In this document: positions 7,251-64,000 of the stretch, piece by piece
How positions within the stretch are numbered: position 1 is the stretch's first letter
Layout: each line of letters opens with the position of its first letter
Source of the DNA: Terriglobia bacterium
Lineage (GTDB): Bacteria > Acidobacteriota > Terriglobia > 2-12-FULL-54-10
DNA length: 64,000 bases
Reading direction: 5' to 3'
Assembly (NCBI GenBank): GCA_963666975.2
Contig: CAXVYR010000002.1
Coordinates: forward strand, 224,001-288,000
Translations under genes and position numbers: made by a program
Notes under the pieces: generated by a model
The model's database searches: none
The model's input: the letters and a program-made list of their open reading frames with translations, nothing else
What the model was told of the DNA's origin: nothing

Positions 7251-8117
7251 TTGGCGGCAATTACGATGAAAGAGTTGTTGGAAGCTGGCGTTCACTTTGG
7301 GCACCAGACCCGGCGCTGGAATCCAAAGATGAAGGAGTATATTTTCGGCGAACGCAATGGCATCCACATCATTGATTTGCAGAAGACCCTCAAAATGTTT
7401 AAGGAAGCCACACGGTTTGTTGTGGAGTTGGCCAAGGAGGGGCGGACTCTCCTGTTTGTGGGAACCAAGCGGCAGGCTCAGGAAGCAATCGTCGAAGAGG
7501 CCAAGCGATGCTCCATGTATTTTGTGAACCAGCGATGGCTGGGCGGGCTGCTGACCAATTACGGCACCATCCAAAAGTCGATCCGGCGATTGAAAGAGTT
7601 GGATGAGATGTCGCAGGACGGCCGCTACGAGTTGCTGCCAAAAAAAGAAGTCATCAAGCTGGAGAGGGAGCGGAAGCATCTGGAGCAAAACCTGTCCGGC
7701 ATCAAGGAAATGCCCGGTCTTCCGGACGCCGTTTTTGTGATTGATTCTTTCAAAGAAGAAATTGCAGTTCACGAGGCCCGCAAGCTGGAAATTCCGGTGG
7801 TGGGGGTTGTAGATACCAACTGCGACCCGGACAAGGTGACATACGTCATTCCCGGCAATGACGACGCCTTGCGGGCCATCCGGCTATTCGCTTCCAAGAT
7901 TGCGGACGCGGTTTTGGAAGGAAAGCAACTGGCTGCGGAAGTCGCTTTAGAAGAGGAGAGCCGGGCAGCGAAGGCGGAATCCGAGAACCAGGAACTGGCC
8001 GCAGAGGATTCGCAGATGTATTCCCCTCCGCGAAAAGAGCCTGCTGTTGAACCGGCAGGGGAGGAAGACTTGTCCACCGATACTCCCGACGTAGCGGCCC
8101 CGGGAGGCATCCAGTAG
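7251..8117 (+). CDS. rpsB: 30S ribosomal protein S2
   Basis: AGGAGG then TTG start; [35 protein letters not shown]. Confidence 0.97.
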
Positions 8118-8347
8118 GGTTGTTTCACCCGCCCGGGATTTTCGGCGATTCGCCGCTGCCGGACTGAGCGGCTCCCACCCAGTCTTGTATTGGCAAGAGG
8201 TTTTCAAAAAAAAGAGGCTCTGAAATGCGGGCGGTTTGCAGGGGAAAGTAAGAGGCGATTCCGCTTTTGCCTCCTGGAATCAACGTCCCGCAAAAAAACG
8301 CCGCTGGGATTGCAGCGGCCATTCCAAAGGCAGGTTCGTCCGAAATC

Positions 8348-8980
8348 ATGGAAACTGAGATTAAGATTTCAGCACAAACAGTAAAGCAGCTTCGCGAGCG
8401 GACCGGCGCACCCTGGGCGGACTGCAAGGCGGCGCTCACCGAGTCCAAAGGAGACCTGGACGGAGCAGAGGTGGTCCTGCGCAAGAAGGGTCTCGCCGCG
8501 GCGAAGAAAAAGGCGGGACGCACCACGCTGGAGGGGTTGGTCGGCTCCTACATTCACGCCGGCGCAAAGATCGGCGTGCTGGTGGAGTTGAACTGTGAAA
8601 GCGACTTTGTAGCCCGCACGGCAGAGTTTCAGCAACTGGCCCATGATATCGCCATGCACATCGCCGCCTCGGACCCGCGTTACATTCGCAAAGAGGAAGT
8701 GACGCCGGAGATCCTGGAAAAAGAAAAAGAAATTTACCGGGCGCAGGCATTGGCATCCGGCAAACCGGAGAAAGTGCTGGACCGCATTGTGCAAGGCAAA
8801 ATGGAAAAGTTTTATGAGGAGGTTTGCCTCTTGGAACAACACTTTATCAAGGACCCGGGGCAGACCGTAAACCAGGTCATCGCCTCCGGCATCGGAAAGC
8901 TCGGGGAAAACATCAGCGTGCAGCGCTTTGTCCGTTTCAAGGTTGGTGATAGTACGGAGAGCACCTCCAAAGCGAGCTAA
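8348..8980 (+). CDS. tsf: Elongation factor Ts (short form)
   Basis: [34 protein letters not shown]. Confidence 0.97.
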
Positions 8981-8993
8981 CGTTCCGTCCTCC

Positions 8994-9713
8994 ATGTCCT
9001 CCAAGCCCATTTTCAATCGTGTGTTGCTGAAGCTGAGCGGAGAGGCTCTGGCAGGCGCCTCCGGATTCGGCGTCGCTGCGGTTCGCTTTCAGGAAATCGC
9101 GCAGCAGATCCGCGAGGTCAGCCGACTGGGCGTGCAAACGGCGCTGGTCATCGGAGGAGGGAACATCTTCCGGGGATATGCCGATGCGGCCAAGGAAATG
9201 GACCGGGTGGCCGCGGATCACATGGGGATGCTGGCAACCCTGATCAACGCCATCGCTTTGCAGGATGCGCTGGAGAAGCAAGCGGTTCAGACGCGAGTAA
9301 TGACCGCCATGGCGATGCATCAGGTGGCGGAGCCTTACATCCGGCGGCGCGCCCTCCGCCATCTGGAAAAGGGCCGCGTAGTGATCTTTGCCGCGGGCAC
9401 GGGGAATCCTTTTTTCTCTACCGATACGGCGGCTGCCTTGCGGGCGATGGAGATTCAGGCCGAGGTGATCCTGAAAGCCACCAAGGTGGACGGCATATAC
9501 GATGCCGACCCGGTCAAGGTCAAGGATGCCAAGATGTTTTCGAAAATCTCCTACCTGGAAATGATCTCGCAGAATTTGACGGTTATGGATTCCACGGCTC
9601 TTTCGCTGTGCCGCGACAACAGCCTGCCCACCATTGTCTTCAATCTCAATGATCCCCAAAACATCGTGCGAGTCATTCTAGGGGAAAAGGTGGGTTCGCT
9701 GGTAAGCGGCTGA
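8994..9713 (+). CDS. pyrH: Uridylate kinase
   Basis: [36 protein letters not shown]. Confidence 0.97.
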
Positions 9714-12788: not shown

Positions 12789-13529
12789 ATGGCGGAAACC
12801 AGCAATCGGTTGCAAGGAACCGCTGCTCACCAGAGCGCGGCGAACGGGAAGCTCATCCGGACCGAGGACCTGTGGAAGACCTACCTGATGGGTTCGGAGC
12901 AAATCCACGCCTTGCGCGGTGTCAGCCTGGAAATCGAGCGCAACGAATATGCCGCCATCATGGGGCCGTCCGGTTCGGGAAAGTCCACCTTGATGAATCT
13001 GATCGGCTGTCTGGACACCCCCACGCGGGGCAGCTATTGGATCAACGGAAAACTGGCGAGCGATCTCGATGACGATCAATTGGCTTATCTGCGAAACCGG
13101 GAGATCGGCTTCGTTTTCCAAACTTTCAATCTTCTGCCGCGGGCGACGGCGCTCGGCAACGTGGAGTTGCCGCTGGTTTACAGGGGCCTTCCGGCAGCCG
13201 AACGCCGCGAAAAAGCCCAAAACGCTTTGCGGATGGTCGAGCTGGCAGACCGCATGGACCACCGGCCCAGCGAACTCTCCGGCGGCCAGCGGCAGCGCGT
13301 GGCCATCGCGCGAGCTTTGGTGAACTCGCCCTCCATCGTGCTGGCCGATGAGCCTACCGGCAACCTGGATTCCGCCACCGGCACCGAGATTATGAATCTT
13401 TTTGAGCGTCTCAACCGGGAGGGTCACACGCTGCTGGTGGTCACGCACGAGCAGTGTGTTGCGGCCTATGCGCGCCGCATCATCCATATCCGGGACGGCA
13501 CGGTGGAGCGGGATGAACGTATCCGTTAG
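12789..13529 (+). CDS. ABC transporter ATP-binding protein (MacB/LolD-like)
   Basis: [27 protein letters not shown]. Confidence 0.95.
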
Positions 13530-13632
13530 CGGCCGGCGGCAAAAGCACCGGAAGCCTGAAATTGCCGGAGAAGACGAGGAACCGGAGCCTCCCGGCACAG
13601 GGTTCGACTGTTTGGATTTTCAAGGTTGAAAA

Positions 13633-14853
13633 ATGTCTATTGCTGATTCCTTCCGGCTGGCGATCCATACCTTGCTGGCTCACAAACTCCGGTCTTTCCT
13701 GACGCTGCTCGGCATCTTGATCTCCGTCACAACGCTGGTCACCGTTGTCTCGATTGTCCGCGGCATGGACCAATTCGTCGCCGAGCGTCTCTCGCAGCTT
13801 GGCACCGAAGTTTTTGTCATCTCCCGGTTCGGCATCATCACGAATTCAAAGCAATGGGCGGAGGCGCAGAAGCGTCCCAGGTTAACCCTGCAGGACTACG
13901 AGGCCTTGCGCCGGGGAGTAACGCAAGCCACCCATGTAGGAGCCATTGTGCGGGAGCGGGGTGAGTTGAAACACGGCAGGCAATCCCTCCGAGCCTCCGT
14001 TCGGGGTGTGACGGCCAATATGATTGACATCCGCACCGAAGAGCTTGCCTCCGGCCGCTACATCAGCGAGGCCGATTACCGCCATCGCAAGCGGGTTTGC
14101 GTCATTGGCGCAGACGTCTTAATAAATTTATACCCGAGCGGAAACGCTGTTGGAAAATTACTTTCCATCCGAGGGCAAAGATTTCAGGTCGTCGGGGTGG
14201 CCCAGCCCGTGGGCTCCATCTTTGGGCAGTCGCAGGACAATTTCGTTTATATCCCTTTGACGACAGCGCTGAAGCTCTACGGACAGCGGCGAAGTATCGG
14301 CTTCCAGATTCGGGTCCGCGAAGCTGCTCTTCTGCCTCCGGCCGCCGACCAGGCGCGGCTCATCCTGCGGGCACGCCACCATCTGGGCTATTTCGACAAG
14401 GATGATTTCGGGTTAATTAGCCCGGCCGCGGTTATGGAGCTCTGGCAAAGTCTGACGGGAACCATTGCGCGGGCGGCTGTGGTCGTCACGATCATTTTTG
14501 TTGTGATGGGCGGAATCGTGATTATGAACATCATGCTGGCGTCTCTCGCGGAGCGCACCTGGGAGATCGGCATGCGCAAGGCGGTGGGCGCGACAAGAGC
14601 GGACGTGCGAATGCAATTTCTTATGGAAGCGGCCTGTTTATCCATACTCGGAGGCGTGCTGGGTGTCGCTCTGGCTTTTGCGGGCACCAGGCTGGTCGCT
14701 TTGCTGAGCCCCGTCCCGGCTCCATTTTCTCTGGATATCGTGGTCGCTGCCCTTGCCGTTTCGGGCGCGGTTGGACTGTTTTTTGGCATCTATCCAGCCG
14801 CCCGTGCCGCCCGCCTGGACCCGATCACCGCTCTGCGGTCCGAGAGCGGTTAG
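13633..14853 (+). CDS. ABC permease (MacB/FtsX family)
   Basis: RSFLTLLGI, IMNIMLASLAERTWEIGMRKAVGA, LDPITALR. Confidence 0.93.
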   Translation: MSIADSFRLAIHTLLAHKLRSFLTLLGILISVTTLVTVVSIVRGMDQFVAERLSQLGTEVFVISRFGIITNSKQWAEAQKRPRLTLQDYEALRRGVTQATHVGAIVRERGELKHGRQSLRASVRGVTANMIDIRTEELASGRYISEADYRHRKRVCVIGADVLINLYPSGNAVGKLLSIRGQRFQVVGVAQPVGSIFGQSQDNFVYIPLTTALKLYGQRRSIGFQIRVREAALLPPAADQARLILRARHHLGYFDKDDFGLISPAAVMELWQSLTGTIARAAVVVTIIFVVMGGIVIMNIMLASLAERTWEIGMRKAVGATRADVRMQFLMEAACLSILGGVLGVALAFAGTRLVALLSPVPAPFSLDIVVAALAVSGAVGLFFGIYPAARAARLDPITALRSESG

Positions 14854-57399: not shown

Positions 57400-58230
57400 A
57401 TGCGGTATTGGGGATTAATATTGCTCCTCGGTGCGGGGCTGCTGATTGCGCTCACACTAGGCGTGCGGGATATCCGCCGGGCTCAATCCGAATTGGGGCA
57501 GCCGGTCGGCAGCGGCTCCGCAACGGACATCCCAACCATACGGTTCGTGAAGAACCCCTCTCCTGTGCCGGAATTTACCTATGAAGACCTGGAAGGACGA
57601 AGCCAGGGCACGCGTGACTGGCTGGGCAAAGTGGTTCTGTTGAATTTCTGGGCCACATGGTGCCCGCCTTGCCGGGCGGAGATTCCCGACCTGATCCGGC
57701 TGCAGACCGAGTATGCGGACCGTTTGCTGATTGTCGGGCTCTCGACCGACGCTGAGGGAAAAGAAATAGTGCAGTCATTTGTGGAAGAGGCGGGGATCAA
57801 CTACCGGGTAGGCATGTCCACACCGGAGGTGGAAGCAAAATTCGGGGGTGTTTTGGGCCTCCCGACAACTTTCTTGGTGGATACCAGGGGACGAGTCGTA
57901 CAAAAGCATATCGGTTTTGCGAACCCGGAGCTTTACGAAATGGAGATTCGCGCCTTGCTGGATCTCCCCGTCAATGCGAACGTGGAAATGTTTGAGGACG
58001 AGGGACAAGTCTTCCTCTCAAACGCCGCCAATGCAACCGAGTTGCCTGGAGTGGACCTCTCCCAGCTTACTCCGGAACAACGGAAAGCCGCCCTCCGGCA
58101 GCTCAACGAGCAGACATGCACCTGCGGATGCAATTTGACGCTGGCGCAGTGCCGGATCAACGACACCACTTGCGTTGTGAGCACGGAGCTCGCCAATCAA
58201 GTGGTGGAGGAAATTATAGCCTCTCAGTAG
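57400..58230 (+). CDS. TlpA-family disulfide reductase with Cys-rich C-terminal domain
   Basis: LNFWATWCPPCRAEIP, GLPTTF; C-terminal CTCGC.LTLAQC....TTC. Confidence 0.9.
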   Translation: MRYWGLILLLGAGLLIALTLGVRDIRRAQSELGQPVGSGSATDIPTIRFVKNPSPVPEFTYEDLEGRSQGTRDWLGKVVLLNFWATWCPPCRAEIPDLIRLQTEYADRLLIVGLSTDAEGKEIVQSFVEEAGINYRVGMSTPEVEAKFGGVLGLPTTFLVDTRGRVVQKHIGFANPELYEMEIRALLDLPVNANVEMFEDEGQVFLSNAANATELPGVDLSQLTPEQRKAALRQLNEQTCTCGCNLTLAQCRINDTTCVVSTELANQVVEEIIASQ

Positions 58231-58783: not shown

Positions 58784-58828
58784 TAGAACTATATAGCAGC
58801 GGTTCCAGACCATTACCTAAGGGGACTT

Positions 58829-61081
58829 ATGACGAACAGGAAGATTGCGACGGGGGCGAAGCGGCGACAGAACCTCGTACTGGCAGCCATCCTAACATTG
58901 CTCGGAGTGGGTGCTGGATTTTTGCTATCCGGGGGAAATGATATTGAGGCGCGCTCTGCCTTGGGCCGCAAACCCACCGGATTTCCCCAGCTAGTCTCGG
59001 TAGAACCCTTGCCGATGATGGACGGGGAGATGTGCCAGTGGATGCCCGCCAGCGCATCCGGCAACCTTCGCGCGTCACTCTTCCAGACGGGCGCATCCGG
59101 TCGCGCCGCCTCGGCGGAAGACCCGAACCGCGAGGAGGTTCGGCGGCGGCCCCCCCTGCGAACCATCAAAGACCCCTATGCTTCGTTCAGCGCCATCGCG
59201 GTGGACCCCGTTCGCGATGAAGTGATCATGACCGATGAAAGTCTCTTCCAGATTCTCGTCTATGACCGATTGACCAACACTCCTCCCACGGCCCAATTTT
59301 CCGAGCCGAAGCGGTCCATCGGCGGTTTAGATACGAAGGTGGATTATGTCTGCGGGCTCTACATCGATCCGGCAAGCGGCGACATCTACGCCATCAACAA
59401 CGACACGGTGGACACGCTGGTCATCTTCAACCGCCAGGCCAAGGGCAACATTCCGCCGACGCGGGAACTCTACACCCCGCACGGCACCTACGGGATTGCG
59501 GTGGATGAGGGAGCCGAGGAGCTGTTTCTCACCATTGAGCACGACAGCGCCGTGGTGGTCTTCAACAAGTGGGCGGAGAAGGATGCGGAGCCGCTGCGAT
59601 CCTTGCAGGGAGAACGGACGCGTCTGGCCGACCCGCACGGCATCGCCCTGGACGCGGAGCGGAATGTGATGTACGTCGCCAACTTCGGCTCGTCCCAATC
59701 CCACGATCCCAACCTCGACAACAAGTCCCGGCCGATGTACAGCCGGGGCGAAGGAAAAGCCAACTGGCCTCTGACGCGCAACAGCGTCATTCCGGGCAGC
59801 GGACGTTTCACCGATCCGTCCATCACCGTGTATGCGAAGGACGCGCGAGGAAACACGGCTCCCCTCCGTGTCATCCAGGGCCCGAAGGCGAGGCTGAACT
59901 GGCCCACAGGACTGGCCCTTGACCCGGTAACCCATGAACTTTTTGTCACCAACGACATGAATGACGAGGTGCTGGTCTTCGACGGGGACGCCGAGGGAGA
60001 CGTGGCGCCGAAACGCATTCTCGGCGGGCCGAAGACGATGATCAAAAACCCCACCGGCGTCTGGGTGGACCGGGAAAATGAAGAGTTGTGGGTCGCCAGT
60101 TTCGGCAACTACACAGCGACCGTTTTTCCGTTGGGCGCATCCGGCGACACGGCCCCGCGACGGGTGATTCGCAGCGGCCCCCTGGGAAAACCCGCGCTCA
60201 TGATCGGGAACCCGCACCCAGTGGCCTATGACAGCAAGCGCGAGCAGATTCTGGTCCCCAACTGAGTGGCTCATCCGCAGATTGCGGTATTCGCCAGGAC
60301 GGCGGATGGAAGCGACTCTCCCGTACGGAAAATCGAGGGCCAGAAAACCAAGCTGGGGCGCACCATGCACTCTATCATTTACGACCCGATCCATGATGAG
60401 ATCAGCGTGCCGCAGGACTTCGCCCACGCCATTCTGACGTTCCGCGCGGATGCCAGCGGCGAGCAGCCTCCGATGCGGATTCTGCAAGGTCCCGACACTC
60501 GTTTGAATGGACCGGAACGGCACACGGTGGACCCGGTAAACAACGAGATTTATGTGCCTCAAGGCGACGAGATTCTGGTCTTTGACCGCGAAGCGGCGGG
60601 CAACGTGGCTCCGAAACGCATTCATAAGGGGCCGGACACGAAATTAGGCGCGGGCGCTGTGGCCGTGGACCCGGTGCGCAACCTCCTGGTTGTTGTGGGA
60701 ACGCATGAAACTGAAGGGCTGAAAATCCGCATCTACCCGCGAACGGCGGAGGGCAACACCCCGCCGCTGCGGCAGATCGGAGGGCCGAACAGCATGATCA
60801 CGAGGATGGGCGGCCCGTTCGCGCTGTACCCGCCCTCGGGCAAGATCGTTCTCACGATGCGTCCCCGGAAGGCCGGTGTTCTGGGCGGGGATGACAGTTT
60901 CACCGGCGTCTGGAACATTACAGACAACGGCGATGTTCCGCCCCAATGGACGATCGGGGGGCCGAAAGGCGCTCTAGTGATGCCGCGCGGCGTTGCGCTG
61001 GATGTGAAGAACAAGAGCATCATCGTGACCGACAAGCGGCTCAACGCGATCCTCACTTACTATTTCCCGGAAATTTTCTAG
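58829..61081 (+). CDS. NHL-like beta-propeller protein with in-frame UGA at 60263-60265 (candidate selenoprotein, 750 aa if read through)
   Basis: ORFs 58829-60265 and 60266-61081 are contiguous and in frame; the blade repeat continues across the stop. Confidence 0.75.
60269..60313 (+). promoter_or_regulatory. Putative bacterial SECIS element
   Basis: CATCCGC(60272-78)/GCGGATG(60302-08) lower stem, GCG/CGC upper stem, GUAUU loop starting 21 nt after the UGA. Confidence 0.55.
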
Positions 61082-61334: not shown

Positions 61335-64000
61335 CTAAAAAGAGAAGCGCAAGGCGAATTGAATCTGGCGTGATGTGGTCGCCGTCCTGGAAATCCTTCC
61401 TGCCGTACTGGTTCGGTTGCCGGACCGGCCCGAGAAAACGACAGCGGAAGGGCTTGTTAAATTGGGATGGTTGGGAAGATTGAACAGGTCGGCTCGGAAT
61501 TGCAATCGCCGTTTGGAGTCGAGTAAAAATTCCCTCCGGAGCGATACGTCCATGTTGAACACGCTAGGGGAGATGAGCGTGTTGCGGCCCGCGTTGCCGA
61601 GGGTTCCCGGCGGAGGCGCCGAAAAAGCACAGGGATCGAAATACAGCTCCGGGGTGCCCAGGGTTTGGCCTGCGCTAATGCGGCCGCAACCAGCCGAAAC
61701 ACCCTCCACCAGATTGTTGCTCGCGCCGCCGGCCAGATTCGGCCTGCTGGCCGCAAACAGGTAGCCTTCGGCGCGGGCTTTGGACTCGGCGGAGAAGGGG
61801 GTCCCTTTACGTAAGTTCATGATCCCGCCCAGCCGCCAGCCGCCCAAGAGCTTGGAAAGGGGGCCTGAATTCCACCAGCGCTGCCCGCTCCCGAAGGGAC
61901 TATTATAGAAGTAGCTGAACACGAGGCGATGCCGAATATCGAAGTCCGACAAGCCGCGGTCGAGCGTCCGCATCAGGGGATACTGGCCGGTGTTGGATTG
62001 CTGCCCGACGGAGGAATCATCCACCGATTTGCTGAACGAATAGCTGGCCTGCAGGGATAGACCGGAGCTAAGCGACTTATTGGCGGAAACCTGCAGCGCG
62101 TTGTAAAAGGATTGCGCGTCCGTATTGATGATGGTGATCGAACCAAAGTTCGGATTGGTCGGTCCCGCGTTGGGCTGGCAGAGGTCTGAAGGATTGGGTG
62201 AACTGCAATCATCCGGGAAGAAGAGCGCCCCATCCTGCTGAACGACGGGAACCGGATACTGGTTCGCCTCGAAACGGCGCAACAGGTGGTTGCCTCGGGA
62301 ACCGACGTAGGAAGCCTGCGTGCGCCAGCCGCCCGGCAGCTGCTGCTGCAGCGTTACGTGGTAACGGAACACCATCCCCGAGTTCATAGCCTGATGATCC
62401 ATGACCTGAACCAGGAAGGGCACGTCGACGGCGCCTTCCAGCGCGTTGGGGAAAAATGCGGAGGTGTCCAGATTGGGGCTGACCGCGATGTTGTAAAACG
62501 GAGCCGAGCTTCTTCGCGAATTGGCCACGTATCCCAGAACGGGGTCGTAGTAGATGCCGACGCCGCTTCTCACCACTGTTTCCCGGCCCTCCCAGGGAGT
62601 CCACGTAAGACCCAGGCGGGGCGCGAAATTCAAAAGAGAAGAATTGCTCTCAAAGAAATCCCCGTACTCCACCTCCGTGCTCCGCACGACGTCCCGAAGA
62701 AACACGGTCTTGTTCAGCCGGTCGCTGATTTTGGTAACCATTTCATAGCGAAGACCCATGCTCACCTGAAGGCGAGGATGGAGCCGGTATTCATCTTGAG
62801 CGTAAAGGCCCACCAAAGTCTGCCGAAAGTCGCGCTGGTTGTCCGAGCCGGGCAATGCAACGGCCAGACCTGTTCCCACCGGTCCGGCCTGCAAAAACCC
62901 CTCCAGGCTGTTAAACGACCACACCGCACCCTTCTGCCAGTCGCTGAAGATGTCCCATCGGTAGCGATGCACGTCCACTCCAAACTTCAACGCATGAGGC
63001 CCTCGCTGCACAATGAGCTGCCCCCCGAACTGAAGGGATTTCGCGTTATCGGCCCGGGGGATATTCGACCTAGGGCCGAAGGCGCTTAGACCCGGCATCT
63101 GGATTACGCCGAACCTCGGAGCCTCGGGCAGGAAGAACAACGAAGGCGGGATTTCAATCAGGGAACGCGTGGCGGAAGAGTCAATCATTCGCGTATAACC
63201 AAAGCGGAACGCCGCCAGCGCCTGCAGATTGAGGATGTGGGTTCCCACCACCGTGAGGTATTGCTGGCGGGTCTCTTTGACGGTCTGGAACAAGTGTGTG
63301 CCCTGCGACTCCTCGCCGGTGGCGTCGTCAAAGGTGTAGCGGGCGAAGAAGCTGTCCTTGTCCGAGATTTTTTGGTCCACGCGAAAGGTAAAAAAGTTTT
63401 CGTTCACCGGCAGAAATTGGGGAGCCACGTTGCGTCCTACGCCGCGTCCCAGCCCGATATCGTTCGGTACGGGAATCAGCTCCAGGTAGGGCTGCACGCT
63501 GGGCGCGATGGGGACGGTGGGCGTGCCGGAGGAGTCCGGAAATCCGCTCCGAGCCTCTCCGTCCGGGAAGAAGCTCACATTGGTCTCGGTCAAACGGTCG
63601 CGCAGTCCCTCATAGCTGAACAAGAAAAAGGCCCGGTCCTTTTGTAACGGGCCCGTCAGCGTAAATCCGAACTGGTTCCGCTTAAAGGGAGGCGGCTCAG
63701 AATCGCGGTCAAAAAAGTTGCGTGCATCCAGCTTGCTGTTGCGGAAAAACTCAAACAGGGTTCCATGAAATTCGCCGGTTCCGGAGCGGGTGATCGAATT
63801 CAAAACCCCTCCGCTGCTGCGGCCATACTCGGCTCCATAACCGGCGCTGAGCACCTGCACCTGGAAAACCGTATCGGACCCCAGTTGCACCCCGGCGGCG
63901 CTTCGGGGAACTTGATTTCGCGCATTCATGATGCTGGTTCCGTCCAGCAGGAAGTGGTTGGAGGTGGCGCGGCTGCCGGAAACCGACAAGCTGCCGCCGC
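61335..64000 (-). CDS. TonB-dependent receptor (Oar-like); 5' end beyond the window
   Basis: TRSGTGEFHG, DARNFFD, NFAPRLG, RQIQFALRFSF. Confidence 0.92.
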   Translation of the reverse strand, partial: GGSLSVSGSRATSNHFLLDGTSIMNARNQVPRSAAGVQLGSDTVFQVQVLSAGYGAEYGRSSGGVLNSITRSGTGEFHGTLFEFFRNSKLDARNFFDRDSEPPPFKRNQFGFTLTGPLQKDRAFFLFSYEGLRDRLTETNVSFFPDGEARSGFPDSSGTPTVPIAPSVQPYLELIPVPNDIGLGRGVGRNVAPQFLPVNENFFTFRVDQKISDKDSFFARYTFDDATGEESQGTHLFQTVKETRQQYLTVVGTHILNLQALAAFRFGYTRMIDSSATRSLIEIPPSLFFLPEAPRFGVIQMPGLSAFGPRSNIPRADNAKSLQFGGQLIVQRGPHALKFGVDVHRYRWDIFSDWQKGAVWSFNSLEGFLQAGPVGTGLAVALPGSDNQRDFRQTLVGLYAQDEYRLHPRLQVSMGLRYEMVTKISDRLNKTVFLRDVVRSTEVEYGDFFESNSSLLNFAPRLGLTWTPWEGRETVVRSGVGIYYDPVLGYVANSRRSSAPFYNIAVSPNLDTSAFFPNALEGAVDVPFLVQVMDHQAMNSGMVFRYHVTLQQQLPGGWRTQASYVGSRGNHLLRRFEANQYPVPVVQQDGALFFPDDCSSPNPSDLCQPNAGPTNPNFGSITIINTDAQSFYNALQVSANKSLSSGLSLQASYSFSKSVDDSSVGQQSNTGQYPLMRTLDRGLSDFDIRHRLVFSYFYNSPFGSGQRWWNSGPLSKLLGGWRLGGIMNLRKGTPFSAESKARAEGYLFAASRPNLAGGASNNLVEGVSAGCGRISAGQTLGTPELYFDPCAFSAPPPGTLGNAGRNTLISPSVFNMDVSLRREFLLDSKRRLQFRADLFNLPNHPNLTSPSAVVFSGRSGNRTSTAGRISRTATTSRQIQFALRFSF

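Follow-up and report, generated by a model that had tools for sequence, protein, structure and literature searches.

The propeller gene and its in-frame UGA

The window analysed here is a stretch of 64,000 nucleotides from the genome of a Terriglobia bacterium (G000:C2:224001-288000; all unlabelled coordinates are window positions), and it carries on its forward strand a beta-propeller gene that is split by a single in-frame TGA. The upstream open reading frame (ORF), at 58829..60265, encodes 478 residues and has TGA 60263-60265 as its stop codon. The downstream ORF, at 60266..61081, encodes 271 residues, lies in frame with the upstream one and has as its first codon a GTG that follows directly on the TGA. 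Read through, the complete gene (58829..61081, forward strand) consists of 750 codons and a TAG stop codon at 61079-61081, with the TGA at codon 479. Judged from sequence data, it is very probable that this is one gene for a selenoprotein of 750 residues, in which UGA 60263-60265 encodes selenocysteine (Sec, U).

The frames and coordinates agree with those of a first-pass annotation, which had described a split ORF with one in-frame UGA, and both peptide stretches quoted there, ...VAYDSKREQILVPN-U-VAHPQIAVFARTADGSDSPVRKIEG and LALDPVTHELFVTNDMNDEVLVFDGDAEGDVAPKRILGG, are present in the read-through translation. That annotation had also remarked that the downstream ORF begins at the very next codon without a Shine-Dalgarno (SD) sequence. 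Inspection of the sequence indeed revealed no SD-like run ahead of GTG 60266; the putative SD-like sequence AAGGGGA (58819..58825, forward strand) is located 4 nt upstream of ATG 58829. Paralogues and orthologues can be aligned over residues 1-750, across the TGA, with identities of 48-95%. The predicted Sec codon (60263..60265, forward strand; U479) corresponds to the end of a beta-strand (residues 473-479, as assigned by DSSP in an AlphaFold2 (AF2) model), and is embedded in the motif VPN-U-VAHPQ (P-N-U-V-A-H-P-Q). No CxxU or UxxC arrangement, with Cys, Ser or Thr two residues from Sec, occurs at this site, and the fold is that of a propeller and not thioredoxin-like, in support of the earlier description of an exported protein of 750 residues with two propellers, in which Sec479 is not part of a CxxU motif.

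Conservation of the UGA/Cys column

Nine copies of the family were identified by a six-frame search of the same genome, eight near full span and one shortened, with 52-61% identity to the query. Each has one in-frame TGA, which in all nine sits in the context ...ILVPN-TGA-VAHPQIA.F.R... When 40 related genomes were searched, matches were found in 11 of the 13 that belong to the same GTDB family, with 2-32 matches each. Among the 150 matches listed of a total of 264, one in-frame TGA is present in 147, none in two and two in one. In the alignment of 58 full-length copies from this genome and its relatives, column 479 is U in 56 and Cys in two, and these two are the stop-free copies. A scan of one genome per species added 80 further loci with 85 motif hits, in which the column is TGA (83) or TGC (2). 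After removal of duplicates 119 distinct contexts of 66 nt remained. The first-pass annotation had looked to homologues for a conserved TGA or Cys at this column, and this is what the contexts contain, with TGA in 116 and TGC in three.

The same column was inspected in uninterrupted proteins. A HMMER scan of 1.84 billion representative sequences produced 6441 hits at E <= 1e-3, with 644 remaining at E <= 1e-30, and the uninterrupted representatives that were read across the site (38-55% identity) have Cys in 13 out of 13 cases. In a word-indexed search with residues 400-600, 739 uninterrupted proteins were retrieved, and among the best 120 of these Cys is found in 119 and Trp in one. Homologues with Trp, Arg or other residues, which had been put forward as the sign of a simple nonsense mutation or sequencing error, are confined among these 120 to the single Trp. 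In a combined alignment of 178 Sec and Cys forms the column is C or U in 177. The only non-Cys protein among the best 120, P0256 (725 residues), carries W at the Sec column, with VAHPQIAAFARMAKE after it; most likely this W is a TGA translated as Trp by the gene caller. In the source databases the homologues are named 'DNA-binding beta-propeller fold protein YncE', '6-phosphogluconolactonase (cycloisomerase 2 family)', 'beta-propeller fold lactonase family protein' or 'hypothetical protein'. Many database proteins end at residue 478 or begin at residue 480/481, as had been predicted for a gene that standard annotation would split.

Logan contigs from three DNA runs of three different studies list no alternative letter at 60263-65 (a 60271 T>C variant is listed). 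In the same runs the summed depth over 60233-60314 exceeds that of the flanks roughly 13- to 57-fold, with contig ends at 60246-60310, as expected for a nucleotide block that is common to many paralogues. The block of TGA plus hairpin described below behaves as an assembly repeat.

A covarying hairpin downstream of the UGA

The candidate selenocysteine insertion sequence (SECIS) is a hairpin at 60288..60308 on the forward strand, with a 5' arm at 60288-60295, the loop AGGAC at 60296-60300 and a 3' arm at 60301-60308; the loop starts 30 nt after the UGA. In an alignment (86 nt) of 55 distinct Sec copies, RNAalifold predicted an 8-bp hairpin formed by columns 32-39/45-52 with the loop AGGNU, in which 94.3% of the 440 cells are paired. 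Pair 33-51 is the most variable one (AU 14, GC 11, CG 9, UA 4), amounting to 25 double-sided changes. None of 500 shuffled alignments reached the observed pairing or covariation score, and controls slid along the alignment paired to at most 64.5%. In the larger set of 116 TGA contexts, pair 36-48 is CG in 112 and UA in three, pair 38-46 is once AU and pair 37-47 once CG, and the loop reads AGGNY in 113.

The minimum free energy (MFE) of the 25-nt hairpin segment of the window is -10.1 kcal/mol, and 3 of 200 shuffled sequences fold as well; the mean over the 55 copies is -11.5 kcal/mol, most of them having a 9-bp stem and a GGN triloop (A-GGN-U apex). The bacterial SECIS consensus, in the passages of a 2026 review that describe it, comprises a loop of 3-9 nt, a stem of 4-16 bp, a G in the first two loop positions, the pattern N1-G-[G|U]-N-N2, a distance of 16-37 nt from UGA to loop and an MFE <= -7.5 kcal/mol (PMC13188914). 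The hairpin of the window (8-bp stem, AGGAC, 30 nt, -10.1 kcal/mol) agrees with every point of the consensus given there. In the 4.2-Mb genome a covariance model of the block (R1) retrieved exactly the nine family copies, with no other hit at E <= 0.001. Rfam contains no match to 60150-60450 apart from a chance snoRNA hit at E 4.4.

Codon usage points in the same direction. The Arg codon in the loop is AGG in 54 of the 55 Sec copies, whereas AGG accounts for 8.1% of the Arg codons in these genes overall, and the Ala codons in the stem are GCC in 48 and GCG in 52 of the 55. All three Cys copies have CGC or CGG in place of AGG and are unable to form the hairpin; in one of them synonymous codons still specify FARLAD. 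This codon bias, together with the loss of the hairpin in Cys copies, indicates that the constraint acts on the RNA, not on the protein alone.

Two other hairpins were considered and rejected. The one drawn in the first-pass annotation, with a 7-bp lower stem (CAUCCGC/GCGGAUG) and an upper stem of 3 bp, does occur in the MFE fold of the single sequence (z = -1.47; 18 of 200 shuffles fold as well). In the alignment (columns 16-22/46-52 plus 28-30/36-38) it is paired in 82.9% of cells without covariation, three of its pairs are broken in 22-34 of the 55 copies, and 500 of 500 shuffles score as high. The competing hairpin CCGCA-GAT-TGCGG, of which the annotation had warned, is indeed present in the sequence; it is paired in 87.3% of cells, likewise without covariation, and its outer pairs are broken in 15-17 of the 55 copies. 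The claim of a SECIS downstream of the UGA therefore stands, but the structure supported by covariation is the one at 60288-60308.

Selenocysteine machinery and genetic code

Genes were identified in the genome for SelA (466 bits), SelB (68 bits for the wing domain, within a frame of 654 residues), SelD (349.5 bits) and tRNA-Sec (selC, anticodon TCA, 72.8 bits), all with scores above curated cut-offs. These four genes, the absence of which would have spoken against selenocysteine in the earlier proposal, are thus all present. They are located on other contigs (C3 and C4) than that of the window (C2), consistent with the earlier remark that the window itself holds no sel genes. The selD gene (G000:C4:1360322-1361257) has one in-frame TGA, at the classical G-U-A-S-K position, which is followed 20 nt after the UGA by the hairpin CCAAA-GGU-UUUGG. 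This implies that SelD is itself a selenoprotein in this genome, and its A-GGU-U apex matches the A-GGN-U apex of the propeller family.

UGA has not been reassigned, since TGA is the terminator in 23 of the 52 family genes for which a C-terminal FPE.F motif could be located. The only tRNA with a UCA anticodon found in the genome is tRNA-Sec. ARAGORN also called a 96-nt tRNA-Ser with anticodon AGA (G000:C3:934710-934805), which is unusual for bacteria.

Alternative explanations

Three other explanations of the interrupted frame were weighed. First, the UGA could be read through as an amino acid other than Sec (Trp, Cys or Gly), whether through near-cognate decoding or through a locally altered code. 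The W of P0256 is what a gene call of the code-4 type would give, and the evidence for selenium comes from sequence data. Nevertheless we consider this very improbable, as the only UCA-anticodon tRNA is tRNA-Sec, TGA serves as a terminator in 23 of the 52 family genes, the Sec machinery is complete and includes a SelD that is itself a selenoprotein, and the hairpin conforms to the consensus of the SelB type, with the same apex as the selD SECIS.

Secondly, and with even lower probability, there could be two real genes, with the TGA terminating a propeller protein of 478 residues and a protein of 271 residues starting at the adjacent GTG by translational coupling. GTG does follow the TGA in 108 of the 116 contexts, but the other eight have GTC, GTA or GTT, where a restart is not to be expected because the codon is not a start codon, and an SD sequence is lacking before the GTG. 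The many database proteins that end at 478 or start at 480/481, and the atlas clusters of 430-504 and 273-303 residues, would suit two genes, but such split entries are the output of gene callers and not observations. The two ORFs would be divided within a blade, just where a beta-strand ends, and the Cys forms are single polypeptides. Two genes would also leave unexplained the hairpin and its codon bias, as well as the Cys at the exact column in 119 of 120 uninterrupted homologues.

Finally, a nonsense mutation, a pseudogene or a sequencing error in this copy can be practically dismissed: a fresh nonsense mutation would look like a single in-frame stop in an otherwise intact gene, but TGA is found at the same column in 116 distinct contexts from many genomes, with exactly one TGA in 147 of 150 listed matches, both halves are conserved (48-95% identity), and three independent assemblies are without a variant at the codon.

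Several points weigh against the selenoprotein interpretation or its functional extension presented below. The assignment of Sec comes from sequence data. RNA run X17 yielded short contigs over 8 of 30 bins, none of which bridges the UGA by the criterion of the tool, and is uninformative on expression. The family copies are paralogues and hence not independent. Most stem pairs are nearly invariant, so that the covariation rests mainly on pair 33-51 and a few single compensatory changes, and the loop AGGAC of the window is a rare variant (2 of the 116 contexts) without the closing A-U pair. No operon partner is constant among the 123 loci of the neighbourhood sample, some of which overlap or were fetched twice, so that counts from it are inflated. 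The function is deduced indirectly; Cys69, one of the residues implicated, lies in a region with a predicted local distance difference test score (pLDDT) < 50.

Protein architecture and conserved residues

The AF2 model of the whole protein (pLDDT 82.1, predicted template modelling score (pTM) 0.80) consists of a helix (residues 7-34), a low-confidence linker (28-97) and about 12 four-stranded blades. In the hydrophobic N-terminal helix (58847..58930, forward strand) a run of 17 hydrophobic residues is preceded by K/R residues, suggesting a signal anchor or an uncleaved signal peptide. The first propeller comprises about six four-stranded blades between residues 108 and 445 (59150..60163, forward strand), with approximate boundaries derived from the DSSP strands of the AF2 model. 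The second propeller (residues 440-750; 60146..61078, forward strand) was modelled separately as a domain of 24 strands with pLDDT 89.9 and pTM 0.89, and is predicted to be six-bladed and of the NHL type, with Sec479 in its first blade.

This domain superposes on the NHL domain of TRIM2 with Z 27.4 and rmsd 2.6 A over 262 aligned residues, followed by Lin41 (Z 27.1), TRIM71 (27.0) and Brat (26.5). The NHL enzyme PAL (3fw0) gives Z 26.0 and rmsd 2.8 A over 268 aligned residues at 15% identity. Sequence-based evidence for the same fold includes a Pfam NHL match (PF01436; 33.3 bits vs a cut-off of 20, E 4.2e-08) and, in a sequence-profile search of PDB, weak matches to NHL proteins only (best E 8.8e-05). 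The Pfam Lactonase model is marginally above its cut-off (24.3 vs 21.7 bits). SGL (SMP-30/gluconolactonase/LRE-like) remains below its own (22.3 vs 26.3 bits), as do the NCBIfam models for 6-phosphogluconolactonase (NF008258; 21.5 bits vs 370) and 7_blade_YncE (18.5 bits vs 400). Foldseek with the whole model returned generic tandem WD/YWTD propellers (TM 0.25-0.33), which are uninformative on function.

The 178 aligned Sec and Cys forms share a small set of near-invariant polar residues, namely C69 (in 167), H270 (173), U/C479 (177) and H514 (178), and further D468, R471, R511, D523 and E573. Residue 482 is H in 139 and Q in 34. Apart from Sec/Cys479, Cys69 is the only near-invariant Cys, C175 not being conserved; its codon (59033..59035, forward strand) belongs to the motif MCQW.PAS in the linker. 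His514 (RTMH; codon 60368..60370, forward strand) is a candidate active-site partner on the neighbouring blade, and its position corresponds to the His of the PHG-type motif at the start of a blade, presumably the position that supplies zinc ligands in PAL. The site of Sec479 is, as we assume from NHL and YWTD blades, the loop after the second strand on the ligand-binding face.

Proposed mechanism and function

There is strong support for the decoding of UGA 60263-60265 as selenocysteine by the SelA/SelB/SelD/tRNA-Sec system of the genome itself, directed by the intragenic SECIS at 60288-60308 (an 8-bp stem, 9 bp in most copies, with the A-GGN-U apex). The N-terminal helix may anchor the product in the inner membrane, with both six-bladed NHL propellers facing the periplasm, an orientation suggested by the positive residues that precede the hydrophobic helix. 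Sec479 would then be the last residue of strand two in the initial blade of propeller 2 and lie at the propeller mouth, where it may act as the catalytic residue together with the invariant His514 on the next blade and His482. The combination of an invariant Cys/Sec, invariant histidines on adjacent blades and the conserved Cys69 on a flexible tether points to a catalytic selenol.

As to its chemistry, the leading option, though at less than even odds, is a selenol/thiol redox or nucleophilic enzyme that acts on small imported substrates, with Cys69 as resolving partner. Somewhat less probably, Sec and His could be ligands of a catalytic metal, by analogy with PAL, and some other chemistry is the least likely. 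The many paralogues would be substrate-specific variants; several of them have genes for amidohydrolases, TonB-dependent outer-membrane receptors or transporters as neighbours. Taken together, the family might, with due reserve, represent a previously unrecognised class of periplasmic selenoenzymes with a Sec-His site on an NHL propeller, possibly including Cys69 or a metal, and with some 20-27 substrate-specific paralogues encoded beside TonB receptors, amidohydrolases and transporters. If this is true, the Terriglobia lineage would be among the most selenium-dependent bacterial groups known, by virtue of a single family, and selenium would be heavily used outside the anaerobic groups in which large selenoproteomes are usually reported.

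Distribution, copy number and evolution

The family has expanded within one family of Acidobacteriota (Terriglobia). TGA-bearing copies number nine in the present genome, 27 in G003 (a complete single-contig genome of 3.76 Mb), 23 in G001 and 18-19 in G009. The related loci are from metagenome-assembled genomes (MAGs) labelled Acidobacteria, Terriglobia, Bryobacteraceae, Solibacteraceae or Candidatus Sulfopaludibacter, and single related loci are labelled Binatia, Verrucomicrobiia, Luteitalea, Vicinamibacterales and Deltaproteobacteria. When another 250 genomes, sampled evenly across the phylum, were searched with at most four candidates scored per genome, the family was found in one at E <= 1e-60. 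The carriers are some Acidobacteria of soil and groundwater.

Family tree analysis (FastTree) of the 178 Sec and Cys forms shows that the two forms are interleaved, with at least eight changes between Sec and Cys under midpoint rooting, the direction of which is not resolved. The Cys copy L039, for example, has a Sec copy as nearest neighbour, at a distance of 0.27. As the same hairpin occurs in all Sec copies, a single origin followed by repeated reversion to Cys is the simpler reading, of which the tree is no proof.

The shortened copy in the present genome (G000:C4:2003608-2005033; about 7285-9037 of locus L146) matches query residues 43-207 and 454-750 and has kept the block of TGA and SECIS. 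This copy could be a variant with a single propeller, or one in decay. Next to another paralogue (G000:C4:1197777-1200026) two genes for Mutator-family transposases were found (L142:10244-11542 and 13373-14764), a possible route of paralogue duplication.

Gene neighbourhood

In the sample of 123 loci, the most common neighbours outside the family are Amidohydro_3 proteins (27 ORFs in 24 loci), followed by TonB-dependent outer-membrane proteins (20 ORFs in 17 loci), SorA-like Mo-oxidoreductases (9 ORFs in 6 loci) and cytochrome c (6 ORFs in 4 loci). DASS transporters are recurrent without being constant. As the neighbours vary, a set of substrate-specific periplasmic enzymes would fit better than a single fixed pathway. 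The largest cluster of neighbours, with 53 ORFs from 40 loci, was discarded, because its members run antisense to the family genes themselves and are artefacts of a G+C-rich coding strand. An antisense ORF of 432 residues (59327-60625, reverse strand) also overlaps the gene in the window.

About 600 bp upstream of the gene and on the same strand, the window encodes a TlpA/Redoxin-type thiol-disulfide oxidoreductase (57400-58230, forward strand) with a WCPPC motif and a Cys-rich C-terminal tail. This protein is conceivable as a periplasmic reductant. No such neighbour was seen at the eight other copies scanned in the same genome. On the other side, a gene for a TonB-dependent-receptor-like protein of 1086 residues with CarboxypepD_reg and OMP_b-brl_4 domains (61335-63998, reverse strand), which continues past the end of the window, converges on the propeller gene. 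Just downstream of the paralogue at G000:C4:2150418-2152589, genes for a SorA-like molybdopterin oxidoreductase, a cytochrome c and a cupin protein were identified (L144:9945-11742), and these neighbours hint at a link with sulfite or organosulfur metabolism.

Relation to published selenoproteomes

No paper on a selenoprotein of the propeller, NHL, lactonase or YncE kind came up in full-text searches, and the papers that join the terms selenoprotein, selenocysteine and NHL repeat deal, by their titles, with eukaryotic topics. Word searches found no mention of propeller, NHL, lactonase or YncE in the main texts of a 2026 review (PMC13188914), deep-Sep of 2025 (PMC12013277), BSepDB of 2026 (PMC13326102), the GOS study (PMC2398784) and a 2022 review (PMC9312934). 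The main text of the 2026 review, including its Table 1, which is presented there as the most comprehensive inventory, is by the same word searches also without repeat, PF01436 and PF10282. For the statement in the first-pass annotation that NHL-repeat selenoproteins have been predicted before, no published prediction was found in the texts searched. The large NHL double-propeller family thus is apparently undescribed, although a prior listing in supplements, in the BSepDB tables or in a survey of groundwater MAGs is possible.

What looks new is a selenoprotein family in the NHL propeller fold, with the motif VPN-U-VAHPQ, that was not found in current inventories; the recoding mechanism is that of ordinary bacterial SelB/SECIS. 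The scale is also unusual. A survey of 2006, in the part consulted, lists three families and four selenoproteins for Acidobacteria (PMC1794560), and the bacterial selenoproteomes quoted in the main texts cited above comprise 39 and 46 genes (PMC12013277) or 57 and 63 genes (PMC13188914), the largest being described as the biggest found. A single family with 27 Sec-encoding copies in a 3.76-Mb genome is to be compared with the 46-63 genes, over all families, of the largest selenoproteomes quoted in those texts. In addition, there is a systematic annotation error, with numerous clusters in public protein sets whose last residue is 478 or whose first is 480/481. The family also offers a natural experiment on the evolution of a SECIS within coding sequence, in which the hairpin imposes the rare codons AGG, GCC and GCG as well as the peptide F-A-R-x-A; in copies that have switched to Cys the peptide is kept and the codons are lost.

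Comparison with known systems

The family resembles bacterial selenoproteins of the SelB/SECIS type, such as SelD and formate dehydrogenase, in having an in-frame UGA aligned with Cys and a G-G apex located 16-37 nt downstream, in a genome with selA, selB, selC and selD in which the selD apex, A-GGU-U, matches that of the family. It differs from them in having no CxxU or UxxC motif, no thioredoxin fold, and 9-27 copies per genome.

With the 'beta-propeller fold lactonase' and 'YncE' families (PF10282, PF08450 and COG3391-type) the relation is one of names, which have been given to the Cys forms, and of a marginal Lactonase score, whereas the 6-phosphogluconolactonase, YncE and SGL models are below their cut-offs. 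To our knowledge, these families have no catalytic Cys or Sec.

The closest structural relatives are the NHL propellers (PAL 3fw0 and TRIM2/TRIM71/Brat), which share the fold of the Sec-bearing domain, in agreement with the Pfam NHL match above cut-off, but with an identity of only 13-17%, and without the arrangement of two tandem propellers behind a membrane anchor. Compared to PAL, the family conserves Sec/Cys479, His514, His270 and Cys69, and not the residues that we take to be the zinc-binding histidines of that enzyme.

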